Positions 10,211-40,153 of a stretch of 64,000 bases of DNA are shown here, in pieces. The notes under the pieces are model-generated. The model did not search any database, was not told the DNA's origin, and saw only the letters and a program-made list of their open reading frames with translations. The position numbers and the translations under genes are program-made. Every line of letters starts with the position of its first letter. The first letter of the stretch is position 1. This stretch comes from an uncultured Chloroflexia bacterium (GTDB lineage Bacteria; Chloroflexota; Anaerolineae; B4-G1; SLSP01): contig CAVOYE010000011.1 of assembly GCA_963700595.1 (NCBI GenBank), positions 218,336 through 282,335 of the forward strand, in the 5' to 3' direction.

Positions 10211-10450
10211 TTCTCCTTGAGTTCGATAAAGCGTATAAAATAAACGGGATCCAACCGAGAATAAAGATATGGGAGATTATAACGATTTTTATAGGCAGGT
10301 CAAAAAGCACAATTGGGCTTCATACGTGATTCTTATCCAGTGCATATCTGCTTCTAATACATTTTACGTACCATGGAGGTAGCAATTGGTTAATGTGGTG
10401 GATCTTGCCTCATGCTTTGCACAGGCTGGGATCTCCCACAGGAGGGAAGT

Positions 10451-13028
10451 ATGGAGAGTAATAATTTAACAGAAAGAGCACAACAGGCTTTAGTCAGGGC
10501 GCAAAGACTGGCGGAAGAGAACAACAATCCTGAAATTGATCCCGAACATGTATTACTGGCGCTGCTGGAACAACCAGACGGTGTTGTACCGCGGGTTATT
10601 CTGGGCTTAGGTCATGACCCGCAGCGTATAAAACTTGATGTTGCGCAAGTTGTCTCGCGGAAACCACAAGCCCGTGGAAGCACAGGTCAAACCTCACTTT
10701 CGTCCAGGACTATGCGATTGCTGCAAACTGCGCAGCGGGAAGCCGAAGGCCTGCGGGATGAATACGTAAGCACAGAGCACCTGTTATTGGCTATGGTGGA
10801 TACCAGCGCGGGTGAGGTCAGCCGATTTTTCCACGCGCAAGGGATAGACCGGGAGGCAGTGCTGCGCGTTTTGGCTTCAATCCGGGGTACACAGCGGGTC
10901 ACTTCGCAGCACCCGGAAGGAACCTACGATGTCCTGGAAAAGTACGGCAGGAATTTAACACAAATGGCGCACCAGAATAAATTGGACCCGGTGATCGGGC
11001 GAGATGATGAAATCCGCCGGGTCATGCAAATCCTCTCGCGCCGGACTAAAAATAATCCGGTGCTGGTCGGTGAAGCCGGTGTGGGAAAGACAGCCATTGT
11101 GGAGGGTTTAGCCCAGCGTATCGTTTCCGGTGATGTACCGGAAGGTCTGAAGGATAAGGATATTTTCCAGCTTGATATGGGAGCTTTGATTGCCGGTGCA
11201 AAGTACCGGGGTGAGTTTGAAGAAAGATTAAAAGCAGTCCTGACCGAGGTGGTAAACTCCGCAGGTCGCATCCTGATGTTTGTGGACGAGTTGCACACGG
11301 TCGTCGGTGCTGGTAAAGCCGAAGGCGCCATGGATGCGGGTAATATTCTTAAACCCATGCTGGCGCGCGGTGAACTGCGCCTTATGGGGGCAACAACGCT
11401 GGATGAGTACCGCCAGTATATCGAAAAGGATGCTGCGTTAGAGCGCCGGTTCCAACCTGTTTTCGTTGATGAGCCTAATGTCGCCGACACGATCAGTATT
11501 CTGCGTGGTATCAAAGAGCGGTATGATACGCACCATGGCGTTCGCATCCAGGATCCGGCTTTGATTGCTGCGGCGACCCTGAGTGACCGGTATATTGTGG
11601 ACCGGCAAATGCCGGATAAAGCGATTGATCTTATCGACGAAGCTGCAGCCAGATTGCGGCTTGAGATTGATTCCAAGCCAACCGTGCTGGATGAAATAGA
11701 CCGCAGAATTATGCAATTGGAAATTGAACGCACGGCTTTGCAGAAAGAGAAAGACAAAGCAAGTCAGGAGCGATTAAATAAGCTCAATGGACATGCTGGG
11801 CGATCTAAAAGAGCAAAGTACGGCACTCACAGCACAATGGCAGCAGGAAAAATCGCAAATTGAAACAATCCGCAGTGTGCAAAAGCAGCTGGATGACCTG
11901 ACGACAGAAATTGAGAGTGCTGAGAGCCGTCGTGATTTTAACGAAGCCGCCCGACTGCGGTATGGACGCTCTCTGGAGCTGCAGAAAGAGCTGAGCGAGG
12001 CGGAAAAACAATTCCGGCTTATTCAGAATGACCAACCCATGCTGAATTATGAAGTTGGTCCGGAAGAGATTGCCCGGATTGTCGCCAGTTGGACCGGTAT
12101 TCCGGTCTCCCGCTTGCTCGAAGGTGAGAAAGATAAGCTGATGCGGATGGAGGAAGAGCTCCACAAACGGGTAGTTGGGCAGGATGCTGCTGTGGCTTCT
12201 GTTTCTAATGCGGTGCGCCGTTCACGGGCAGGGTTGCAAGACCTGCACCGCCCGATTGGGACCTTTTTGTTCCTGGGACCGACGGGAGTCGGGAAAACGG
12301 AACTGGCGCGCGCTCTGGCGGAATTCCTGTTTGATACCGAAGAAGCGATTGTCCGCATTGATATGAGCGAGTATCAAGAGAAGCACACGGTTTCGCGTTT
12401 AATCGGCGCACCTCCCGGATATGTGGGGTACGATGAGGGCGGGCAGTTGACCGAAGCAGTGCGGCGCCGTCCCTACAGCGTGCTATTGCTGGATGAGATT
12501 GAAAAAGCGCATAGTGAAGTGTATAACGTGCTGCTGCAGCTTCTGGATGAGGGTCGGTTGACCGATGGTCATGGGCGGACGGTGGATTTCACCAATACGA
12601 TCGTGATTATGACCAGTAATGTGGGCAGTCGTTGGATTAAAGAACTGTCGCCTGAAGAAGCTTATCCGCACGTTATGCAGGAAGTGGATCAAACCTTCAG
12701 ACCTGAATTTCTGAACCGGATCGATGACATCATCCTGTTTACCAGTTTGACACGCGCTGATCTGGTTAAGATTGTGGATATCCAATTGGGTAACTTGCGA
12801 CGGTTGCTGGCTGAACGGCAGATGGACCTCATCTATTCTGACGCAGTCAAGATGTATCTGGCTGAGAAGGGTTACGATCCTGTATACGGGGCGCGTCCTT
12901 TAAAAAGGACGATTCAACGTGAACTGCAGGACCCCCTCGCTCTGGCGATTCTGGAGGGTGAATTCGGTGAACAAAGTGTGATCCGAGTGGATCTTGTCGA
13001 TGACGAGCTCGTATTTAGAGCTGAGTAA
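10451..13028 (+). CDS. clpB: ATP-dependent chaperone ClpB (frameshift near 11790)
   Basis: Clp N-domain, GEAGVGKT, M-domain, second Walker [26 protein letters not shown]; two ORFs join. Confidence 0.95.
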
Positions 13029-15036: not shown

Positions 15037-17222
15037 ACGTCTCCTCATCTTTCATGGCGACGTCCACCGTCACCGTCGTTCCCTGCCCCGGTTGGCTGTC
15101 CACGGTGACGCGGCCGCCGATCTTGGCAGCCCGCGCCTCGAAACTGTGCAGTCCCATCCCCCCGGCAGTCTGGGCGCTGAGCGGATCAAAGCCGATACCG
15201 TCATCGTGCACTTGCAGGCAAACGGTCCCGGTCGGTGAACTCGTAATCGAATTTTCACATGCTGCGCCTGGGCGTGTTTCATGACGTTGTTGAGCGCCTC
15301 TTGCGCGATCCGGTAGAGTTCCTGTTCGATCTCAATCGGCAAACGACGCTCGCCTTCTACCTCGAGTTCGGCATGCACGCCGGCGCGCGCCTCCACCGCC
15401 GCCAGCCGGACGCGCAGGGCCGTCACCAACCCATCCTGTTCCAGCGCGGGCGGGTGCAGCTCAAAGATCAGCAGCCGCATATCGTACATCGCGCTCCGCG
15501 CCGTGTCGCGCAGTTCTTGCAGGTGATTCACCGTCACGTCCTGTTTGCCGGCCGTCAGGGCCAGCGCCGCCGCATCCGCGTAGAGCGCCATACTGTAGAG
15601 CGATTGCACGACCGAGTCGTGCAGTTCCCGCGCCAGGCGCTGCCGCTCCTCCAGCACCGCCAATTGCCCGGCTTGCTGATTGAGCCGGGCGTGTTCGATG
15701 TTGATGGCGGCCTGATTGGCAAAGAGACTGACGATCCGGATATCGTCCTTCACAAAGCCGCCGGGTTTGTCTACCACTTCCAGCACGCCGATGACGTCGC
15801 CGTTGGCGTGCAACGGCACGGACAAAAAGGCCGTGGGGCGTTTCCCCCGCAGATACTCGTACGACTCGCCGGCGGGCGCGTTGGTCAAAAAGGGTTCATT
15901 CCGGCGCACGGTGATGCCGGCCAAAGACCCTGCGATGGGGATACGGTCAAAGAACGCCGGTTCTGTTCCGCTGCTGTAGGTCACGCGCAGCCAGTTCGCT
16001 GTCTTCTACGAGCAAGACCGCACTGCCCGTAGCGCCGGTCAGTTGCTGGGCCTCGGCGCAGACGATCTCGAGCACCTCCTCCGGGCTGACCTTGTGGAGC
16101 AACGCGGCCGCCACCCGCTGCAATCCCTGGCTTTCGGCCAGGCGCTGGCGCGTTTCTGCGTACAAGCCGGGCGTTGTCCACCGCCAACGCCACCGAGTTG
16201 GCAATGCCCCAGACCAGTTCGATCTCGTCGGGCGTGAACTGGCGATAGTCGCTGGAGGTGCTGAGCAGCGCCAGTCCCAACACCTTGGCGCTCACCCGGA
16301 TGGGCACGGCCAACACCGATTTGATGTTCCAGGTCTGCGCCATCTCCTGGCTGATCCGGGGATCGGCCGCGGCATCGTACCAGACCGCCGGCGCCTGGCG
16401 CTCTAACGCCTCACCCGCCAGAGAATTAACGACCGGATCCAGATACCGCTCACGCAAGTCACCGCGGTCCACCTCGGTCAACGGCCCGCGGACCACGTGG
16501 GGCACCAGCACCCCGCGTTCAGCATCCATCAGATAGATGCCGCAGTAGGGCACGTCCACGGCGGCGATCCAGGGCATCGGCCACCCGCTCCAGCACCTGG
16601 GCCGGTTCCAGCGCGCTGCTGGCCGTCTGGGCCGTGTGCAACATCAGGGCGATGTGCTGTTGCGCGCGGAGGAGATCGGCGTTGAAGGTGGCGGAGGTCC
16701 CCACGAGTTGCTTGTGCTCCCACCCCATCGTCGCCAGCATTTGGGCCAGCCGGATTTGCGCCGCCATGACCACCCGCAGCCGCTCTTCCGAAATGATGGG
16801 CACCTGCCGGAGTGCCGCCAGGTAGGCTTCTTCGTCAACCTGCAACTCTTGCGCCTGCTGGCGGAAGAATGCTTCATCGGGCGGCGCGTGCAGGAATTGG
16901 CCCATGAACAGGGTGGCAATGTGTTCGCCTTTGACCATCACCGGCATAGCACAGTTCATCAGGCCATGCGAGCACTGGTGCACCACATAGGTCGCCCTCG
17001 TGCAAATGGCTGAAAAGGTAGTCGTCACTGTAGGGTGCAGCGGCCCTCGGCCTCTGGCGGGAGGTGATGAAAGCGGGTGCAGATATCCTGCCAGCCCACG
17101 GCGCACAGGCAGTGTCGCTCCGTATCCAGCAGCGCGGTGGCAACACCGACGACGCTATACCACGACTGCATCACCTGCTGAAAGCCGGGCAGGTCTACCA
17201 GGTCGGCAAAACTATACTGCAT
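14945..17222 (-). CDS. Sensor histidine kinase: PocR + 2 GAF + HisKA_3 + HATPase (several frameshifts)
   Basis: [11 protein letters not shown]...WQDICTRFH...C..GL...MGQF (PocR); GAF segments; [13 protein letters not shown]; [11 protein letters not shown]; DDGIGF, GGMGL. Confidence 0.85.
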
Positions 17223-17387
17223 AGAACAACTCCTTTCACTATTTCTGGCAGACGACGCAGGGGGTGAATTACACCCATGGCCGGCCGATAGCATACCCCG
17301 CACCTCATTATATACCCAACAGTGCTGAATGCGCTTCAACGCTAAGTGTATATTTCTCTCCATAGAAAGTGGAGCATACGTAGCGTC

Positions 17388-17460
17388 CATATCCGCCGAT
17401 TGTGGAACTAAAATCCACACTGCCCCGATGACAGCCTGGTCATTGCGATGTATGCTGAGA
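17388..17460 (+). promoter_or_regulatory. Conserved upstream element, copy A (before csbD)
   Basis: TGTGGA-N7-TCCAC-N8-GATG-N16-GATGTA; ungapped match to 28660-28732. Confidence 0.65.
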
Positions 17461-17562
17461 GAGTCACAAGGATAAGTGATTTTTGTCCAAACGTCATTGG
17501 TATGCAAGATGGTTCAATTTTCAACTCGGGCAGTTAATTTGATGGAACAGGGAGGGTTACAT

Positions 17563-30275: not shown

Positions 30276-30503
30276 ATGGAAAAACCAACTACAGTGACAT
30301 GTCCGCAGTGTGGTAGAATGATCACCGATGACCCGCTGATTGCTTTAGCCGTAAGCGGTGAAGGGAAGGCTTCCCAATTCATTAAGTGCGAGTGTGGGAA
30401 CCAGATCAGCTTTTGGGCTGTGACTGCGCAACTCAGGAATCAGAAAAAAATGGGACCGCGACTCAGTGCGTGGTTTCGTTCTCTCTTTAAAAAAAGCAAT
30501 TAA
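30276..30503 (+). CDS. Small zinc-ribbon-like protein
   Basis: RBS AAGGAG; CPQCG and CECG motifs. Confidence 0.6.
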   Translation: MEKPTTVTCPQCGRMITDDPLIALAVSGEGKASQFIKCECGNQISFWAVTAQLRNQKKMGPRLSAWFRSLFKKSN

Positions 30504-30516
30504 AGCGGACTCACCA

Positions 30517-31995
30517 GTGAATATCCTGCTGGTTTACCCGGAGTTCCCGGACACTTTTTGGAGTTTCAAACACGCGTTAAAGTTCATCCGTAAAAAAGCT
30601 GGGTCTCCGCCTCTGGGTTTGCTGACTGTGGCGGCGATGCTGCCTGCCGAATGGGGAATGCGTCTGGTGGACCTTAACACCACTGGTCTGAGCCAAAAAG
30701 ACCTGCTGTGGGCTGATTATGTTTTCATCAGCGCGATGGTCGTACAGCGGGACGCAGCCCGCGACCTCATCATCCGTTGTAAGCAGGCAGGGGTAACCGT
30801 GGTGGCGGGTGGACCTCTATTCACAATGGAGCATGACCAGTTCCCCGAGGTGGATCACTTTATACTCAATGAAGCCGAAATCACATTACCGCTTTTTCTG
30901 GCAGATCTGGCTAATGGCTGTGCACGTTCGCTTTATACCACCGACGAATTTCCAGATATCCGGCAAAGTCCGGCGCCCCTATGGGGGTTGGCGAACTTGA
31001 AATATTACGATGCCATCAGTATCCAATACTCGCGTGGATGCCCGTTTAATTGTAACTTCTGCAATATCACCGCACTTTTGGGCCATCGCCCACGAACCAA
31101 GACTGCCCCGCAGATTGTCGCCGAATTAGACAGCTTATATGCACTGGGTTGGCGCAAGAGTGTCTTTTTTGTGGACGATAATTTCATCGGCAACAAAAAG
31201 CAGCTTAAATCTGAGATCCTGCCGGCTTTGATTAGATGGCGTAAAGGGAAGATTGGGATGCCATTTCATACAGAAGCGTCAATAAATTTAGCCGATGATC
31301 TGGAATTGATGGCGTTAATGACCCAGGCAGGATTTAATATGGTCTTTGTGGGGATCGAGACGCCTAATGAAGCCAGTTTGACCGAATGCAGCAAGTTTCA
31401 AAACAAGGGGCGGGATTTAGTGGAAAGCGTCAAGCAACTTCAACGGGCAGGCCTCCAGGTGCAGGGTGGATTCATTGTCGGTTTTGACAGCGATACACCG
31501 GCAATCTTCCAGCAGCAGATTGAGTTTATTCAGAAGAGCGGAATTGTGACAGCGATGGTTGGACTGTTGCAGGCGCCTCCCGGCACGCAACTCTATGAAC
31601 GCATGCAGAAGGAAGGACGCCTGGTGAATGATATTTCTGGTGATAACGTTGACGGTTCGACAAATATCATTCCCAAAATGGGTCTTGAACCCCTGCGTGA
31701 AGGCTATCACCACCTTCTGGCGCATATTTATGCACCCAAATATTACTATGAACGGGTGCTGACATTCCTGCGGGAATATCAGCCTCCCAGGATTCGGACC
31801 CACCTTGATTTCCAATATTTCCTTGCTCTGTGGCGATCGATTTATCAATTAGGAGTTCGGGCGGAAGAACGGGTTCACTACTGGCGCCTTTTCTTCTGGA
31901 CCTTATTCCGCAAGCCACGTGTGTTCCCTCTGGCAATTGCAATGGCGATATACGGCTTTCACTTTCGCCAGGTGATTGCTTCACACGTTGGGTGA
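30517..31995 (+). CDS. B12-binding radical SAM protein (DUF4070 C-terminus)
   Basis: PPLGLLTVAAMLP, SRGCPFNCNFC, FVDDNF, GFIVGFDSD. Confidence 0.9.
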   Translation: MNILLVYPEFPDTFWSFKHALKFIRKKAGSPPLGLLTVAAMLPAEWGMRLVDLNTTGLSQKDLLWADYVFISAMVVQRDAARDLIIRCKQAGVTVVAGGPLFTMEHDQFPEVDHFILNEAEITLPLFLADLANGCARSLYTTDEFPDIRQSPAPLWGLANLKYYDAISIQYSRGCPFNCNFCNITALLGHRPRTKTAPQIVAELDSLYALGWRKSVFFVDDNFIGNKKQLKSEILPALIRWRKGKIGMPFHTEASINLADDLELMALMTQAGFNMVFVGIETPNEASLTECSKFQNKGRDLVESVKQLQRAGLQVQGGFIVGFDSDTPAIFQQQIEFIQKSGIVTAMVGLLQAPPGTQLYERMQKEGRLVNDISGDNVDGSTNIIPKMGLEPLREGYHHLLAHIYAPKYYYERVLTFLREYQPPRIRTHLDFQYFLALWRSIYQLGVRAEERVHYWRLFFWTLFRKPRVFPLAIAMAIYGFHFRQVIASHVG

Positions 31996-32302: not shown

Positions 32303-32762
32303 GGGTGTGCGTCACATTTTTGCAGAATATCAAGGGACGCGAACATACTCCAAACGTAACCGTTTGTAGTCTAGCCCCTCGTGGGCGTTCTGAACGGGGG
32401 TACTTGATGCACAATCGATGGTACCACGGGAGAACGGGCACAAGGCCCTGGACTACGGGATTGAGCGGGAATAAAAAGGAACAACGTTGATCCTGAGTTT
32501 AGTCGGGTGCAAAAAACTGACGGACACCCCTTCGACTGGGTGTGCGTCACATTTTTGCAGAATATCAAGGGACGCGAACATACTCCAAACGCAACCGTTT
32601 GTAGTCTAGCGCCTCGTGGGCGTTCTGAAATCGGTACTTGATGCACAATCGATGGTACCACGGGAGAACGGGCACAAGGCCCTAGACTACGGGATTGAGC
32701 GGGAATAAAAGGAACAACGTTGATTCTGAGTTTAGTCGGGTGCAAAAAACTGACGCACACCC
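32303..32762. mobile_element. Head-to-tail dimer of a ~226-bp MITE
   Basis: Copies 32303-32529 and 32538-32762, near identical; TIR GGGTGTGCGTCA...TGACGCACACCC; 8-bp spacer CTTCGACT; flanking 9-bp direct repeat CAGAATTTG (32294-32302, 32763-32771). Confidence 0.85.
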
Positions 32763-32855
32763 CAGAATTTGAGTACAGTTGTTATTTCATAAAATAAGAT
32801 ATATACTTATAGCTAATATCCCGATTCACATAACTGCAAAAAAGGAGTAAGTATC

Positions 32856-33364
32856 ATGTCAGAACCATTCTTGGCAGAGATTAGAATTGTTGGGTTTAAT
32901 TTTGCTCCACGCGGTTGGGCATTTTGTGATGGTCAAATTCTACCTATAAATCAAAACCAGTCGCTGTATTCTTTGTTAGGGACAACCTACGGGGGGGATG
33001 GTCGCACCACCTTTGCCCTTCCTGATTTGCGCAGCAGAGTGCCTATACATACGGGGGGCAGCAATGGTACTTCTCATACTTTGGGATCGAAAGCTGGTCA
33101 GGAAACTCACACGCTGACGGTGTCCGAGATACCTCAGCACACCCACAGCATCCAGGCGTCTTCAGATGGTTCGGATTCCCAGGATCCCACAGATAGAGTA
33201 TTGGCACAATCAGGGCAGGTTTATCGTAATACAGCCTCTTTAGTGGACATGGTGAGTGGATCGATGACCAATACGGGTGGTGGGCAGGTGCATGAAACAT
33301 GCAGCCCTTCCTGGCTCTCAACTTCTGTATCGCATTGACGGGTTTATTCCCGTCGAGAAATTAA
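32856..33364 (+). CDS. Phage tail collar domain (MdpB-like) protein 1 (frameshift near 33295)
   Basis: EPFLAEIR..GFNFAPRGWAFCDGQ...YGGDGRTTFALPDLR; alternative frame gives ...MQPFLALNFCIALTGLFPSRN*. Confidence 0.9.
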
Positions 33365-33374
33365 GGAGGAAGTG

Positions 33375-33893
33375 ATGTCTGAACCATTTGTAGGTGAGAT
33401 TAGAATGTTCGCTGGTAACTTTGCACCCCGAGGTTGGGCGTTTTGTGATGGGCAGCTATTGGCTGTTTCGCAAAATGATGCCTTGTTCTCGCTTTTTGGC
33501 ACGATCTATGGAGGTGATGGACGCACAACCTTTGGCCTTCCTGATTTGCGAGGGCGGGTTCCCGTCCATGCCGGGCAGGGTCCAGGACTTTCAGAGCGGC
33601 GGTTAGGCTCTAAGGGTGGTGCTGAAAATGTGACAGTCACTGTAAATCAACTTGCCTCTCATACGCATTTAGTGAAAGGAACAAATGAGCCTGCTGACGC
33701 CACCGTTCCTTCCAGCAGGCTTCCCGCTGGATCCAGCACCGTTAGTTTATACGCCAGCACTGCGCCTACGGTAGATTTCAACGCAGCAGCGGTACCTGCA
33801 GTAGGTGGTAGCCAATCGCACGACAATCTGATGCCTTTTTTGTGCATTAATTTTATTGTGGCTTTGATTGGCATATACCCATCGAGACAATAG
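33375..33893 (+). CDS. Phage tail collar domain (MdpB-like) protein 2
   Basis: Same collar motif; ends NLMPFLCINFIVALIGIYPSRQ. Confidence 0.9.
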   Translation: MSEPFVGEIRMFAGNFAPRGWAFCDGQLLAVSQNDALFSLFGTIYGGDGRTTFGLPDLRGRVPVHAGQGPGLSERRLGSKGGAENVTVTVNQLASHTHLVKGTNEPADATVPSSRLPAGSSTVSLYASTAPTVDFNAAAVPAVGGSQSHDNLMPFLCINFIVALIGIYPSRQ

Positions 33894-33903
33894 GAGAAAA
33901 ATC

Positions 33904-34422
33904 ATGTCTGAACCATTTATCGCAGAAGTCAGGATATTTGCCGGTAACTTTGCTCCCCGTGGATGGGCATTTTGTGATGGGCAACTGCTGCCAATTGCGC
34001 AGAATACAGCGCTGTTTTCACTGATTGGCACCACTTATGGCGGTGACGGACGTACTACTACCGCATTACCTAACTTGCAGGGTCGCGCTCCGATGCATCC
34101 GGGTCAAGGTCCAGGACTGACAGCCCGGAGACTGGGTGAAAAAGGTGGAGTTGAGACCGTCGCACTTTCTGAAGCACAAATGCCCAATCATCTCCATACT
34201 TTACGCGCAACGGTGAGTCGGGGTAGCGCCAGTCAACCGCAGGGCAATGCCTTTAACCGCTCTACCGGTGATACGGCATACCTTGCCCCGACGAACTTAA
34301 CTGGAATGTCTACAACGATGGCAGCAAATACCGGGGGAGGTCAACCCCACAACAATCTGCAGCCATTCCTTACGCTCAACTTTATCATCGCGCTGGTAGG
34401 GTTATATCCTTCGAGAAACTAA
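33904..34422 (+). CDS. Phage tail collar domain (MdpB-like) protein 3
   Basis: Same collar motif; ends NLQPFLTLNFIIALVGLYPSRN. Confidence 0.9.
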   Translation: MSEPFIAEVRIFAGNFAPRGWAFCDGQLLPIAQNTALFSLIGTTYGGDGRTTTALPNLQGRAPMHPGQGPGLTARRLGEKGGVETVALSEAQMPNHLHTLRATVSRGSASQPQGNAFNRSTGDTAYLAPTNLTGMSTTMAANTGGGQPHNNLQPFLTLNFIIALVGLYPSRN

Positions 34423-34457: not shown

Positions 34458-35513
34458 TTGCACATCATGCATCTGAAAACGCTGAGATTCGCTACAGACG
34501 CGCTTCTTCATGAAGAGGATCGAGGGATGATTTATCTATCTCTCAAGTGCATCCATTCTGTTTTTTCTGAACTATCAACCGTAAAGGGTGATATCCTTGA
34601 ACAGCACCACGATAAGGAATCTTTCCTGGATAGTGGCGTAGCCATCTCGCCGCACCTGGCGGCGAGATGCTTGTTTGATCCCTTACGCACTGTGCAATTC
34701 CTGCGGGGAATAAACCACGCCATCCATGAGGTGATGGATCGATTCCCGGGTGAGAGGATCAATATCGTTTATGCGGGATGCGGGCCTTATGCAACCTTGC
34801 TGCTGCCCCTGACCACGCAATTTGAGCCCGGGCAGATACGATTAACCCTTATCGATATTCACAAACCTTCCATTGATGGGGTTAACCTTATCATCAAGGC
34901 CCTGGGTCTCGAAGATTATGTCGATGCATGTATTCAAGCGGATGCAGTCCGGTATACGTATCCCGAAGATATCCCCTTACATATGGTGGTCAGTGAAACA
35001 ATGCAGGCGGGTCTGGCAAGAGAACCCCAACTGGCGATCATGCGCAATTTTCTGCCCCAACTCCACGGAAACGGACTGTTCATTCCTGAGAAAATAACCG
35101 TAGATGCATACTTGAGCAGTTCAGAAACTGAAGATATAGGATTGTTGATGCACCGTGATGCATCGGGTTATCCGGTCGGGCATGAATTTAAACCCCAAGC
35201 TAATCGTCTATGGCTTAGGCGTGTTGTCGAAGTGAATTCAAAATCACCGCAACAACAGATATTCAACCAGAAGTCGGATTTAGTCGCACTTACCAACATC
35301 GAGATTCCGCCCCACGATCAGAAATTCGATCAATTTTTATTATTAACCACGATAGGCATTTTCGGCTCCTATAATCTGGAACCCTATGACTGTGAATTAA
35401 GTTTTCCCCTGCGACTGCATGATTTGAACGGGATTTCCAGTGGCAGCAAAATCCAATTCTTTTACCAGTCTTCGCACGTTCCAGGGCTGAGCTATGAACG
35501 CATTAGCGCTTAG
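34458..35513 (+). CDS. Class I SAM-dependent methyltransferase, PRMT-like
   Basis: Motif I IVYAGCGP, motif II LIDIH, IQADA, VVSETMQAGLARE (E-x8-E), GLFIP. Confidence 0.7.
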   Translation: MHIMHLKTLRFATDALLHEEDRGMIYLSLKCIHSVFSELSTVKGDILEQHHDKESFLDSGVAISPHLAARCLFDPLRTVQFLRGINHAIHEVMDRFPGERINIVYAGCGPYATLLLPLTTQFEPGQIRLTLIDIHKPSIDGVNLIIKALGLEDYVDACIQADAVRYTYPEDIPLHMVVSETMQAGLAREPQLAIMRNFLPQLHGNGLFIPEKITVDAYLSSSETEDIGLLMHRDASGYPVGHEFKPQANRLWLRRVVEVNSKSPQQQIFNQKSDLVALTNIEIPPHDQKFDQFLLLTTIGIFGSYNLEPYDCELSFPLRLHDLNGISSGSKIQFFYQSSHVPGLSYERISA

Positions 35514-35522
35514 GATCAAACT

Positions 35523-36002
35523 ATGAAAAGAAAAATTACCCTTCGTCCGGTTACGATTGCGGACAGACCATTTCTCAGCGAAGTTTATGCCAGCACCCGG
35601 CAGGATGAGCTATCTGTTCTTGCCTGGAGTGATTCTGAAAAAGAAACATTTCTGAAGTTTCAGTTTGATGCTCAAGACACGTATTATCATGAGCAATTCG
35701 ATTCGGCTGATTTTTTTGTTATTGAAAGAGAGCATAAGCCCGTTGGACGTTTGTATCTTGATCATCGGAAAGATGAGATTCGCATCATCGATATTTCTTT
35801 ACTGCCTCCATATCGCAACCAGGGTATCGGAACTGCTTTTTTAACCGAAATCTTGACTGAAGGTGAAGCTGCCGGATTACCGGTACGCATTCATGTCGAA
35901 TCCAACAATCCAGCCTTGCGGTTGTACAATCGTCTAGGCTTCCAGAAAGTTGACGAAAATGGTGTTTACTATTTAATGGAGAAATTACCGGACCGGTGTT
36001 AA
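35523..36002 (+). CDS. GNAT family N-acetyltransferase
   Basis: IIDISLLPPYRNQGIGT, NPALRLYNRLGF. Confidence 0.9.
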   Translation: MKRKITLRPVTIADRPFLSEVYASTRQDELSVLAWSDSEKETFLKFQFDAQDTYYHEQFDSADFFVIEREHKPVGRLYLDHRKDEIRIIDISLLPPYRNQGIGTAFLTEILTEGEAAGLPVRIHVESNNPALRLYNRLGFQKVDENGVYYLMEKLPDRC

Positions 36003-36013
36003 GGAGAAGATTA

Positions 36014-36331
36014 ATGCTTGATAAACTAACCAGTGAAGATTTTTCTGCGCATATCCATGAATCATTCAGAATAAAACCCGAAGGAGGCGACAATGGGGCA
36101 ACCTACGGTCCGGGTGTGGCTGAGTTAATCGAAGTCAACGAGTTAAGCACACCGCAAAATAGACCGGAGAAAAGAACCCCCTTTTCCCTCATATTTCGAT
36201 GTTCCAATGAAGTCATCATGCCACAGCAAATTTATCTGGTTGAACACGCTCAACTGGGACCGCTCATGATGTTTCTGGTGCCCGTTGGTCAGGATCAAGA
36301 AGGTTACCTCTATGAGGCAATATTTACGTAA
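36014..36331 (+). CDS. DUF6916-like protein
   Basis: LTSEDF...PFSLIF...PQQIY.VEH..LG...MFLVPVG...YEAIF pattern typical of collar-GNAT clusters. Confidence 0.7.
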   Translation: MLDKLTSEDFSAHIHESFRIKPEGGDNGATYGPGVAELIEVNELSTPQNRPEKRTPFSLIFRCSNEVIMPQQIYLVEHAQLGPLMMFLVPVGQDQEGYLYEAIFT

Positions 36332-36832: not shown

Positions 36833-39800
36833 GTGAGGTTAAAGATGAAAACAAGAAAACAGCGTTACATGTGGGCTTTGCTCGGAAACGTGAGTCTATT
36901 CGCAGTTATCGGACTGATATTAATGGTTGCAGTTGGACCGTCATCTGCAGATCCGATACTCACTGCCAGCAAATCCGACATAATATTTATTGACAGCTAT
37001 TCAAACAACGTGGCGAATGCAGGTGACACGATCCGCTACACCACAATTGTCACCAACAGCGGTTCGACGGGAGCCGTAAACATGGCTTTCGTGGATACCA
37101 TCGATCCTGATACCACTTTGGTTGCCGGTTCGGTTCGCACAACCCCCATTGCCCGGCATGATACCTATACTTCAATCGGCAATGTGGGGATCAGTGTTCC
37201 AGCGGGCAGTGGTGTGCTGGCTAACGATAACGATCCTGATGGCAGCACGCCAGTTCTCACCATCGTCAGCTTTGACGCCACCAGTGCCAATGGTGGTAGT
37301 GTTGCTGTGGCAGCTGATGGCAGCTTTACCTACCTACCAACCCCGGGTTTTGAGGGATCTGATTCATATACATATACGATCCAGGACAGCGATGGCAATA
37401 CTGATCCTGCAACCGTCGTTATCAGCGTCAACGATGTGATCTGGTTTATTGATAACAGCGCCGGGGGTGGGGGAGATGGACGTCTTGGTACTCCGTTTGA
37501 CAGTTTGGCAGCGTATGATGCAACTGCCGCGGATGAATCTGGGGATGTTATCTTCCTTTACGAATCAGGCAGCGGTGACTACAGCGGTGGTATCATACTG
37601 CTCAACGACCAGAAACTCATTGGGGAAGGAGCGACAGCCACAATTGCTTCGATTGCCGGTATCACGCTGCCCGCGTTCAGCAACGCTTTACCCGCCACAT
37701 CAGGCAGCAAACCCACGATTATCAACGCTGCCGGTAATGGCATCACCTTGGCAGCAAATAACACCATTCGCGGTCTTAATGTCGGAAACACTACCGCCAC
37801 CGGTATTGCGGGCAGCTCTGTCGGTACATTGACGCTGAGTGATGTTTCAATTACCGGTAGCGGTAAGGGCGTTGATATCAACGGCGGAGCTATGGCGGCT
37901 ACTTTCGACAGCATAGCTGTTTCTTCTTCCACAACTGGTGGGGTATCCCTGCAAAGTGTTTCCGGGACGACAAATATCAACGCTTTGAGTATCACCAACA
38001 GCAGCAGTACAGGTTTGCTGGCTTTATCCGCCGGCACGATAAACATCAACGGCGCCGGCAATATCATCAACACCACCAATGGTACAGCCGTTAACCTCAC
38101 GAACACGAGCATCGGCAGCAGCGGGATAACCTTTCTGAGCGTTTCAGCCAGCGGGACTGACACCGGTATCACACTCAACAACACCGGCATCGGCGACTTC
38201 ACAATTACCGGTAACGGGACAACCGACGGCAGTGGTGGTATCCTGACAAACTTGAACGATCACGGCATCGAACTCATTAACGTGCAGGATGTCTTCATCA
38301 GCAATATGAATTTGAATAACGCGGCTTTGACCCAGGAGGTTGAACCCAACACGGTGACCTGTACGAACCTGTCAAATGGCAGTAACCTGGGCTGTAACGC
38401 TCCGGTGCACATGGTTAATGCGAACAATATAAACCTGACCAACCTGACCATCAACGGCAGTGTGCAGCATGGGGTCAACGGAAACAACGTTAATGGTCTG
38501 ACCATCAGCAATACCGACGTGACCAACATTGGCAATCAAAACAAAGAAAACGGGATGCATTTCATCAATCTGCTGGGTACGGTCAGTTTCAGCAATGTCA
38601 GTGTCATCGGCTCCAATACACGTAACGTGTTGATTGAGAACAACACCGGTATAGCCAATGTCACAGTCACCGGTTCCACCTTCAACACTGCGGGTAGTGA
38701 AGTCGGTCTCGATTTTCTCGGACTGGGCACGGCGAACATCACCTTCAGCGTCAGCGGCAGCAGCTTTTACCGCAACAATTCTGTGCAGCTCAAAGCGCTG
38801 GCTTCGGGCAGCAGCACAATGAATGCCACCATTAACGGCAGCAACACGTTTGAAGGTAACCCAGCTGTGACAGGCAATTCGGGTGTCGATCTGGACGCGG
38901 TTGATGGCGCAACCCTTACCTTTAACGTTTCAGGTAATACTTTCCAACCCTTCAGAAGTCAGGTGATCAACGTTTTCACCTCAGGTGGCGGTACTGCTTC
39001 GGGGCGGGTAAACGGGAACACGATCACAGGATCAGCCTTCGGCGCCGGTGTTCGTGCCGTAGCCGAAGTGACCGATGTCAACGGCACAAACCCCGGCATC
39101 ACGATTGAGATTAATAACAACAGCATCAGTGGTGTAGCGGGTGGCGGGTTAGCCGGTATCCATATCGAAGCCCGTGATGGCAGCAATGGCTTGACAGGCG
39201 TGGCTAACGTTGATGCCACGGTTATCAATAATAACGTCACCACCAATGGCGCTGACGCGGCGATACAGGTATATCTCGAGGATCTGAACGGCACCGCTAA
39301 CCGCGTCTGCATTAACGCCACAGGTAATGCTACGCAAGCCGTAGGGGGTGCTTTTGGTGAGACCGATTTCTTCTTCGGAAATAATGCCGCTTCAGGGACA
39401 AATTCGGGGATTGCTCAGATGCAGGGTTATTCTGGCAGTGTCAGCAATACCTGGTTTACGGTAAATAGCAATACCAGTACAACCACCATACCATTTGCCG
39501 ATAGTCTGGGTCCAATTGGTAGCGGTACTTGTGCCTTGGTTGCATCCGTTCTTCCTGCAGCTAACACCCCAATGATTACCCGGGATGTGCCGGTTTTACA
39601 TCTAACCCAGAATATATACTCAGATCTGGAGGGAGTTATCGATAACGCATTGATGGTACAGCGTGACCGCTTTGAAAAACAAGTGTCCGCGGTTGATCGT
39701 TCTGATCTGGTTGCCTTCAATACGCAAGTAAAGGCTAAAGTCAGAACATGGGCTGACTGGTTTGTCTCTGCTTTCAGGGTCTCGCCGGTTTTAGCCAGCG

Positions 39801-40153
39801 GCGAAACCATCAACCTGGACCTCGGCGACCTTGACCCCGGACAACAGGTGACCATCACGTTTGATGTAACGGTGGACAGTACAATTCCTGAAACTGCGAC
39901 GCAGGTGTGCAACCAGGGAACGTTTACCGGTGACAATGTTGCCAATTTATTGACTGATGATCCAGACCCGTCCGGTCCTGCAGATCCCACGTGCACCATT
40001 GCTTCGTCGACCACTGCGGTCACATTCACGACTTTGCAGGCGGATCAAGGCACTACTGGCTTACTCGCTGCTGTGATAGGCTTGGCTGGTAGTGCTGTAT
40101 TGGTTTACGCTTTATCCAAACGGGGGATTAAGAAATCAGATCTTTCTCGATAA
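36833..40153 (+). CDS. Large surface protein: split DUF11 + Ig-like (Big_9/cadherin-like) + parallel beta-helix + C-terminal anchor
   Basis: Signal peptide; GDTIRYTTIVTNSG; GVLANDNDPDG...DGSFTYLPTPGFEGSDSYTYTI; N/G/T/S-rich beta-helix repeats; LGDLDPGQQVTITFDVTV; TAVTF + TM + KRGIKK. Confidence 0.8.
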   Translation: MRLKMKTRKQRYMWALLGNVSLFAVIGLILMVAVGPSSADPILTASKSDIIFIDSYSNNVANAGDTIRYTTIVTNSGSTGAVNMAFVDTIDPDTTLVAGSVRTTPIARHDTYTSIGNVGISVPAGSGVLANDNDPDGSTPVLTIVSFDATSANGGSVAVAADGSFTYLPTPGFEGSDSYTYTIQDSDGNTDPATVVISVNDVIWFIDNSAGGGGDGRLGTPFDSLAAYDATAADESGDVIFLYESGSGDYSGGIILLNDQKLIGEGATATIASIAGITLPAFSNALPATSGSKPTIINAAGNGITLAANNTIRGLNVGNTTATGIAGSSVGTLTLSDVSITGSGKGVDINGGAMAATFDSIAVSSSTTGGVSLQSVSGTTNINALSITNSSSTGLLALSAGTININGAGNIINTTNGTAVNLTNTSIGSSGITFLSVSASGTDTGITLNNTGIGDFTITGNGTTDGSGGILTNLNDHGIELINVQDVFISNMNLNNAALTQEVEPNTVTCTNLSNGSNLGCNAPVHMVNANNINLTNLTINGSVQHGVNGNNVNGLTISNTDVTNIGNQNKENGMHFINLLGTVSFSNVSVIGSNTRNVLIENNTGIANVTVTGSTFNTAGSEVGLDFLGLGTANITFSVSGSSFYRNNSVQLKALASGSSTMNATINGSNTFEGNPAVTGNSGVDLDAVDGATLTFNVSGNTFQPFRSQVINVFTSGGGTASGRVNGNTITGSAFGAGVRAVAEVTDVNGTNPGITIEINNNSISGVAGGGLAGIHIEARDGSNGLTGVANVDATVINNNVTTNGADAAIQVYLEDLNGTANRVCINATGNATQAVGGAFGETDFFFGNNAASGTNSGIAQMQGYSGSVSNTWFTVNSNTSTTTIPFADSLGPIGSGTCALVASVLPAANTPMITRDVPVLHLTQNIYSDLEGVIDNALMVQRDRFEKQVSAVDRSDLVAFNTQVKAKVRTWADWFVSAFRVSPVLASGETINLDLGDLDPGQQVTITFDVTVDSTIPETATQVCNQGTFTGDNVANLLTDDPDPSGPADPTCTIASSTTAVTFTTLQADQGTTGLLAAVIGLAGSAVLVYALSKRGIKKSDLSR

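Follow-up and report, generated by a model that had tools for sequence, protein, structure and literature searches.

A bacterial methyltransferase of the PRMT fold with a double-E loop, encoded beside chromosomal tail-collar genes

Canonical protein arginine methyltransferases (PRMTs) consist of an N-terminus, a Rossmann domain that binds S-adenosylmethionine (SAM), a dimerisation arm and a beta-barrel, and carry a double-E loop in which two glutamates stand nine residues apart directly past strand beta-4; in TbPRMT7, each of the two hydrogen-bonds the substrate's guanidino moiety (passages of PMC8226133). Bacterial sisters of the PRMTs have been described computationally, in a passage of PMC3417536, as 'peptide methylases' encoded beside dioxygenases in secondary-metabolite operons. 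Here we report a SAM-dependent methyltransferase (MT) of an uncultured Chloroflexia bacterium, which is almost certainly a PRMT-fold enzyme and whose gene adjoins three genes for tail-collar-domain proteins. The gene lies in a stretch of 64,000 nt (contig CAVOYE010000011.1 of assembly GCA_963700595.1, positions 218,336 to 282,335), which is called the window throughout.

The MT gene is an open reading frame (ORF) with a TTG start (Table 1); an alternative ATG start at 34467 yields the 348-aa form recorded in the protein collection. The original prediction, made from the letters of the window, had recognised a PRMT-like enzyme by the motifs YAGCGP, LIDIH, IQADA, VVSETMQAGLARE and LHGNGLFIP. All of them were found at the positions claimed, with LIDIH at residues 131-135, IQADA at residues 159-163 and VVSETMQAGLARE at residues 177-189, the last of which contains the glutamates E180 (codon nt 34995-34997) and E189 (codon nt 35022-35024).

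The fold of MT was modelled with AlphaFold2 from a 36-row alignment (mean pLDDT 92.8, pTM 0.92, no segment below 50). The model consists of N-terminal helices, a Rossmann-type alternation at about residues 101-210, and a strand-rich C-terminal part (residues 212-349). A Foldseek search of 350,542 PDB chains gave 43 matches listed among ranks 1-50, all of which were PRMTs (PRMT1, 2, 4 (CARM1), 5, 7, 8 and 9, and yeast Hmt1), with E-values of 5e-12 to 1.8e-10, 298-397 alignment columns and query-normalised TM-scores of 0.45-0.54. VIA-align, which is independent of Foldseek and was run against 48,161 PDB representatives, likewise placed PRMTs at all of ranks 1-15; their Z values run from 19.3 to 13.2, and their alignments comprise 243-276 residues, beginning at residues 38-70 and ending at residues 349-351. 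These matches included PRMT7 of C. elegans (Z 19.3), PRMT5 of Xenopus (18.7), mouse PRMT7 (18.4) and PRMT9 (18.3), and further, down to Z 13.2, PRMT2, 10, 3, 4 and 6, TbPRMT7 and TbPRMT1. From rank 16 on, the matches were class I methyltransferases of tRNA, rRNA, O-methylation and precorrin metabolism with Z values of 11.5 or less, which aligned, where lengths were recorded, over 138-180 residues (180 at rank 16) and with the Rossmann part alone. Because of this gap in Z and the coverage of both domains, the barrel belongs to the PRMT match. The PRMT-like architecture was thereby borne out, as the best matches of both programs were PRMTs and neither small-molecule nor RNA methyltransferases, and so was the suggestion that the beta-rich C-terminal third might be the barrel, since it is made of predicted strands that align with the PRMT barrel.

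Conservation was evaluated in two sets, 36 relatives (33-75% identity) and 135 representatives of clusters at 50% identity (26-66% identity). E180 and E189 are invariant in both (36/36 and 135/135), and they are nine residues apart, as the original prediction had it, in all 135 representatives; the double glutamate is therefore a signature of the family and no accident of a single sequence. Only seven columns are invariant among the 135 sequences (G60, R77, G109, P110, E180, E189 and P210). Within YAGCGP, the invariant G109 and P110 are preceded by Y105, A106 and G107, each of which is kept in at least 90% of the sequences, and the position of D133 at the end of beta-2 is occupied by D or E throughout (135/135).

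At the level of sequence, neither the single MT sequence nor the 36-row profile retrieved a PRMT from the PDB sequences. With a 135-row profile, PRMT7 of C. elegans came first (3wst, aligned to profile positions 74-214 at E 0.0044), and PRMTs made up four of the seven matches at E ≤ 10. In the PRMT7 alignment, the family pattern l-l-D-l-k-R-T-a-k-F is paired with ILDFDRNDKF, motif I with VLDIGTG, and the family glutamate pair with both glutamates of AEVFDTELIGE. Three rat PRMT1 entries (E 0.67-0.70, not significant alone) pair SEtMq...E with SEWMG...E and GiliP with GLIFP. In the model, E180 stands right after the strand 176-179 and E189 right before the helix 191-201. On the strength of the profile alignment and of this position, E180 and E189 are assigned to the PRMT double-E loop, as had been claimed from the spacing in PRMT5, and both the fold and the catalytic motif lend strong support to the PRMT-like reading of MT. 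MT itself had no match in Pfam (no family even at E ≤ 1), NCBIfam, PHROGs or PADLOC; PF05185 (PRMT5) was touched by five of the 135 members (best E 3.5e-4; 17.3 bits for P0239 against a cut-off of 22.9), and the generic model Methyltransf_25 was matched by 54.

These results bear on the alternative that MT is an ordinary class I methyltransferase of RNA or metabolites that came to lie near the collar genes by accident. Members that match Methyltransf_25 alone (54/135) speak for it, as does the label 'predicted RNA methylase' among the names attached to relatives, which otherwise read 'hypothetical protein' or 'methyltransferase domain-containing protein'; however, generic enzymes of this kind do not exceed Z 11.5 over the Rossmann part, whereas the PRMTs reach Z 17-19 over both domains.

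Among the PRMTs of known structure, PRMT7, PRMT5 and PRMT9 (3wst, 4g56 and 8rbk) share with MT the core of Rossmann domain and barrel (Z 18.3-19.3, 253-263 residues aligned), and PRMT7 also has E-x8-E directly past beta-4 and an N-terminal D-x-x-R before motif I. Unlike these three enzymes, to which it is 11-16% identical, MT has YAGCGP as motif I, is a single 351-aa core without TIM-barrel, second pseudo-module or MEP50-type partner, and belongs to a bacterial family that is linked to tail-collar genes. A counterpart of their THW loop was not identified; at a guess, it might be the conserved barrel loop Y310-x-[SC]-x-[LIV]-x-x-P317 between the last strands, whose P317 is kept in 130 of 135 sequences. 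The type I PRMTs (1, 2, 3, 4/CARM1, 6 and 8, and Hmt1) resemble MT in their two-domain core of about 310-350 residues (Z 17-18), and the S-E-x-M...E and G-x-x-x-P of MT are the elements that align, at the above E-values, with rat PRMT1. In contrast to type I enzymes, the MT family has, where the dimerisation arm would be expected, an insertion past the first barrel strand (about residues 221-250) that varies in length and is missing from the Bacteroidota members of the 36-relative alignment.

The MT family is bacterial, large and unnamed. A word-indexed protein search with MT found 316 relatives at E ≤ 1e-3, and its profile matched 2,047 of 1.84 billion cluster representatives at the same threshold (1,218 at E ≤ 1e-30), each match being a cluster at 50% identity. 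A scan of prokaryotes with one genome per species confirmed 405 MT loci in Acidobacteriota (mainly Pyrinomonadaceae), Bacteroidota (including Pedobacter, Mucilaginibacter and Saprospiraceae), Halieaceae, Verrucomicrobiota, Chloroflexota, Gemmatimonadota and Polyangia. Cultured carriers are strains of Pedobacter (among them P. suwonensis DSM 18130 and P. terrae DSM 17933), Mucilaginibacter, Sediminibacterium (among them S. ginsengisoli DSM 22335) and Aquimarina. The closest relatives come from assemblies of Chloroflexota/Anaerolineae, such as locus L001 of a Promineifilaceae metagenome-assembled genome (57% identity). The ESM Atlas returned just the family's own unnamed clusters and generic methyltransferases; for phages, a search of 50,697 records came up empty, and none of 28 pattern matches in IMG/VR was confirmed. 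One relative of 719 aa (P0121), twice the usual length and without a Pfam match, is matched by the MT profile in three stretches; this points to a core duplicated in tandem, like that of PRMT7 and PRMT9. Bacterial PRMT-like groups were reportedly defined in a 2011 paper of Aravind and co-workers, and the MT family may be among them.

In the window, the three collar genes, MT, a gene for a GNAT acetyltransferase and a gene for a DUF6916 protein follow each other on one strand, with 36-45 nt between the third collar gene and MT depending on the start chosen (Table 1). The genome has one MT gene and exactly three collar genes, all of them adjoining. The neighbourhood of MT was surveyed at the 80 best of the 405 loci, with up to 6 kb in either direction (less on the many shorter contigs). 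Collar genes were present within about 6 kb at 18 of the 80 loci, in several phyla, and are the sole neighbour family common to more than 11 loci; other recurrent neighbours, judged by the loci that made up each cluster, appeared to reflect synteny within single lineages. The linkage was seen in Chloroflexota, Acidobacteriota, Bacteroidota, Verrucomicrobiota and Polyangia. MT loci without collar genes had no conserved neighbour, and the neighbours found in Halieaceae were not shared. Of five genomes without a collar gene near MT, four have a collar triplet elsewhere.

Table 1. Features of the MT gene and of the adjoining collar module (positions in the window).
Feature	Position	Strand	Remarks
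PRMT-fold SAM-dependent methyltransferase (MT)	34458..35513	+	open ORF, 351 aa, TTG start
D-x-x-R-T-x-x-F motif, N-terminal part of MT, residues 74-81	34677..34700	+	R77 invariant, 135/135
Motif I variant YAGCGP, residues 105-110, SAM-binding glycine loop	34770..34787	+	aligned to VLDIGTG of PRMT7
Double-E loop, E180 to E189 (SETMQAGLARE)	34995..35024	+	E...E offset 9 in 135/135
LHGNGLFIP, residues 202-210	35061..35087	+	P210 in 135/135; aligns to LAPDGLIFP of PRMT1
C-terminal beta-barrel domain, about residues 212-351	35091..35510	+	strands of the model; PRMT alignments reach residue 351
Collar-domain protein 1	32856..33364	+	PF07484, E 6.4e-29; frame-broken
Collar-domain protein 2	33375..33893	+	PF07484, E 9.6e-30; PHROG tail-protein families
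Collar-domain protein 3	33904..34422	+	PF07484, E 2.8e-28
GNAT acetyltransferase	35523..36002	+	PF00583, E 2.3e-14; 10 nt past the MT stop
DUF6916 protein	35996..36331	+	PF21880, E 5.9e-26; overlaps the end of the GNAT gene

Co-occurrence was analysed in two evenly drawn phylum samples with a one-sided Fisher test that ignores relatedness. The sample of Acidobacteriota consisted of 151 genomes, with MT in 4 and collar genes in 23; collar genes were present in all four genomes with MT and in 19 of the 147 without. The sample of Bacteroidota consisted of 201 genomes, with MT in 8 and collar genes in 45 (8/8 with MT, 37/193 without). Over both samples, collar genes occur in 12 of 12 genomes with MT and in 56 of 340 without it; when the two centre genomes, whose carriage was known beforehand, are left aside, the proportions are 10/10 and 56/340 (P = 3e-8, uncorrected for phylogeny). 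MT and a collar gene lie at most 10 kb apart in seven of the 12 genomes, and in two Bacteroidota genomes (G238 and G326) the single collar gene of the genome is the one beside MT. An accidental neighbourhood of a generic methyltransferase would fit neither this co-occurrence (10/10 vs 56/340) nor a linkage that recurs in five groups from Chloroflexota to Polyangia, and together with the gap in fold scores the co-occurrence makes that alternative very improbable.

Collar genes have a wider distribution than MT. At 22 collar loci from genomes without MT, GNAT homologues are adjacent in 15 and DUF6916 genes in 14; the widespread unit therefore consists of three collar genes, GNAT and DUF6916, a set that is also present in L001, and MT is an accessory of this collar module that has been added in a subset. 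Loci with the set in genomes without MT are L082-L094, L099, L100, L102-L104, L107 and L108, and such modules often have two GNAT and two DUF6916 genes. Further modifying enzymes are found in Bacteroidota. In L115 (2986-3678 and 4992-6206), a stand-alone Asp/Asn beta-hydroxylase is encoded between MT and the collar gene, and in L106 (5005-7792) a 2-oxoglutarate (2OG) oxygenase and a formyltransferase are encoded beside a collar triplet. With L113 (3737-4855), the Bacteroidota collar loci have formyltransferase, 2OG-Fe(II)/PKHD-type hydroxylase and Asp/Asn beta-hydroxylase genes as neighbours, and the collar proteins appear as the centre of a group of modifying enzymes. Three Bacteroidota collar loci also have genes for Peripla_BP_6 proteins beside the collar genes.

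The same enzyme classes recur in fusions with MT. Thirteen relatives of odd length included five MT-GNAT proteins, one MT-Asp/Asn-beta-hydroxylase and one MT-PhyH dioxygenase, and all four of the longer forms were MT-PhyH proteins (five MT-PhyH fusions altogether); no fusion of MT with a collar protein was found among the odd-length and longer relatives. Dioxygenase fusions of the PhyH and Asp/Asn-hydroxylase type are one of the reasons to consider another substrate: as a PRMT-fold enzyme, MT would bind a guanidino group, but that of a small molecule or short peptide instead of the collar proteins, such as free arginine or a peptide of ribosomal or non-ribosomal origin. The passage of PMC3417536 assigns the bacterial sisters closest to the PRMTs to operons of antibiotic-like type that also encode peptide dioxygenases and non-ribosomal peptide synthetases (NRPS), and these 'peptide methylases' of Aravind and co-workers are, like MT, bacterial and associated with dioxygenases. 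Many MT genes are distant from collar genes, one carrier has no collar gene at all, and the collar proteins show no arginine specific to MT (see below). Unlike the enzymes described in that passage, however, MT has no NRPS or amine-oxidase context and its partners are the collar triplet, GNAT and DUF6916; no gene for an NRPS, a polyketide synthase or a precursor peptide was seen in the window, and none is recurrent among the 80 loci. Moreover, all 12 genomes with MT in the two samples have collar genes, seven of them within 10 kb, and the GNAT fusion partner itself belongs to the core of the collar module. We consider a substrate of this kind rather unlikely.

The collar proteins resemble the tip of the short tail fibre of phage T4 (gp12). 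They match PF07484 at E-values of about 1e-28 to 1e-30, and a profile built from collar 3 together with its relatives retrieves the T4 short tail fibre structures 1ocy (E 3.2e-6), 1pdi and 5iv5 and other tail fibres. Unlike gp12, the proteins of the window stand alone with about 170 aa, are encoded as three chromosomal paralogues and have no phage genes nearby; the window is ordinary chromosome without tail, baseplate, capsid or other phage genes. An invariant H-x-H and a conserved N-terminus (MSEPF...) are common to the collar paralogues; the ORF of collar 3 opens at a TTG at 33868, with the conserved MSEPF beginning at 33904. Collar 1, which the original prediction counted among the proteins with a terminal PSR, does not attain it in one frame: within a run of A near 33293-33296 the frame of its ORF (32856-33338) is broken by 1 nt, and past this point another frame encodes the conserved C-terminus (ending in NMQPFLALNFCIALTGLFPSRN and a stop codon). 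The orthologue in L001 is intact. None of the contigs of four runs spans 33293-33296; one short contig, from a relative, begins there. Metatranscriptome contigs from marine sediment and salt marsh (X4 and X5) cover positions 33355-33770 on collar 2 with 0-1 differences, although DNA carry-over is possible in such libraries; the same set of libraries yielded no contig on MT. Of the other two partners, the GNAT protein resembles RimI weakly (47 bits, below the cut-off of 86), and the model of the DUF6916 protein (pLDDT 88.7) is a small beta-barrel of six strands. Its best fold matches are YcgR-N/PilZ-type N-domains; as their Z values of 7.0-8.4 count as 'common' on the tool's own scale, no function was assigned.

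A target arginine was sought in an alignment of 138 collar proteins, of which 57 are linked to MT (the three proteins of the window are counted twice, since L081 duplicates it), 15 come from genomes with MT elsewhere and 66 from genomes without MT. The arginine of the C-terminal PSR is kept in 78% of the linked proteins, 66% of those with MT elsewhere and 62% of those without MT; for the arginine of PDLRGR (R61), the values are 87%, 80% and 86%. In the original prediction, the PSR arginine, said to be kept in all three collar proteins, was the pointer to the substrate. It is kept in collars 2 and 3, and in collar 1 when the sequence is read across the frame break; as it is similarly kept in genomes without MT, it is not specific evidence. 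The proposed tie between MT and the adjacent collar proteins is supported by their joint occurrence in genomes and their neighbourhood in at least three phyla; support at the level of residues was not obtained. A prediction of the four-chain complex of MT with the three collar proteins of L001, made with alignments, scored 0.01 against a mark of 0.32 and weighs neither way.

The lack of an arginine that is specific to genomes with MT also fits the alternative that a protein of the collar module, or another protein, is methylated at a residue other than arginine (lysine, glutamine, histidine or the MSEPF... N-terminus) and that the glutamate pair binds another cationic group. The N-terminus and the H-x-H that the collar paralogues share would offer such sites, and the sequence likeness of MT to true PRMTs is marginal. 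This alternative would nevertheless have to account for a glutamate pair that is invariant, has the PRMT spacing and aligns together with the flanking S-E-x-M and G-x-x-x-P; according to a passage of PMC8226133, it is this pair that in PRMTs hydrogen-bonds the guanidino group. Methylation at another residue is accordingly improbable.

Our proposal is that MT is a guanidino N-methyltransferase built as a PRMT, an accessory of the collar module, with arginines of the collar proteins as its likeliest substrate; taken as a whole, we give it about an even chance. Action on a guanidino group is probable, and that the substrate is a protein of the collar module has close to an even chance, as it is supported by the linkage and not by the residue-level evidence. 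SAM would be held in the Rossmann domain by the YAGCGP loop, D133 and D162-A163, roles that we take from the class I methyltransferases and PRMTs in general, and would be covered by an N-terminal helical lid with R77, which presumably binds the SAM carboxylate as in PRMT1. E180 and E189 would clamp the guanidinium next to the methyl group of SAM, with the barrel closing the pocket, and methylation, whether mono- or di-, would fall on a guanidino nitrogen of arginine. The likeliest candidate acceptors are one or more arginines of the collar proteins. Their methylation may accompany acetylation by the adjacent GNAT, and in other lineages genes for hydroxylases and a formyltransferase lie beside the same module.

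A number of observations weigh against this proposal. In the DNA covered, 62 of the 80 MT loci have no collar gene; MT occurs without any collar gene in one complete genome of Halioglobus; and in three chromosomes of Pyrinomonadaceae, MT and collar genes are more than 1 Mb apart. Conversely, most genomes with collar genes have no MT (19/23 in Acidobacteriota and 37/45 in Bacteroidota). None of the arginine columns in the 138 collar proteins is specific to genomes with MT, and collar 1 is frame-broken in the assembly, perhaps by an indel error, perhaps because the gene is a true pseudogene. As to the enzyme itself, MT has no PRMT match in Pfam, its likeness to curated PRMT sequence models is marginal, and the THW loop is without an identified counterpart.

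Two other genes of the window are apparently interrupted as well. A ClpB/ClpC-type ATPase (10412-13028) lies in two overlapping ORFs (Clp_N and AAA; AAA_2 and D2-small), and a GAF/PocR/HisKA_3 sensor kinase (15070-17507) is cut into four ORFs; together with the break in collar 1, this suggests indel errors of the assembly. Just upstream of the collar genes (32303-32763) are two tandem copies (96-99% identical) of a unit of about 234 nt with internal inverted repeats. The unit or parts of it occur at 56 places in the genome, partly in tandem arrays, and had no match above the Rfam threshold; it has the look of a dispersed repeat. Further upstream, some 0.9 kb from the collar genes (30466-31995), is a gene for a B12-binding radical SAM protein with a C-terminal DUF4070 domain, which was not found beside the module at the other loci examined. 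Just downstream of the module (36833-40153) is a gene for a protein of 1,106 aa with Big_9 and cadherin-like domains. The same domains flank MT or collar genes at loci of Verrucomicrobiales and Bacteroidota (L036:3-5879, L109:4932-8099), and other Bacteroidota collar loci have large TIG, beta-propeller or T9SS-sorted (type IX secretion system) proteins after them; the collar proteins may have a partner in the large Big_9/cadherin-like protein.

Searches of the literature (listings and abstracts, without supplements) returned nothing on the MT family, on DUF6916 or on the module of three collar genes, GNAT and DUF6916. PRMT-type arginine methylation is treated as eukaryotic in the literature searched, apart from the one passage on bacterial relatives. 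Bacterial PRMT-like enzymes are, by that passage, already in print, and what is added here is a compact family with the PRMT architecture and glutamate pair and with a new, specific genomic partner. In its furthest form, the finding would mean a dedicated protein-arginine methylation of bacteria, in which a stand-alone PRMT-fold enzyme acts on a chromosomal heterotrimer resembling a tail-fibre tip, a toolbox of acetyl, formyl, hydroxyl and methyl groups tunes a surface-recognition device, and MT is a prokaryotic, free-living relative of the lineage from which eukaryotic PRMTs came; we regard this as possible, if somewhat doubtful. Because the family is large and un-annotated, has cultured carriers and has a candidate substrate encoded next door, PRMT-type methylation of proteins in bacteria becomes directly testable. 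MT also provides a compact PRMT core of 350 residues for structural and evolutionary comparison, and its linkage directs attention to the widespread module of collar triplet, GNAT and DUF6916.

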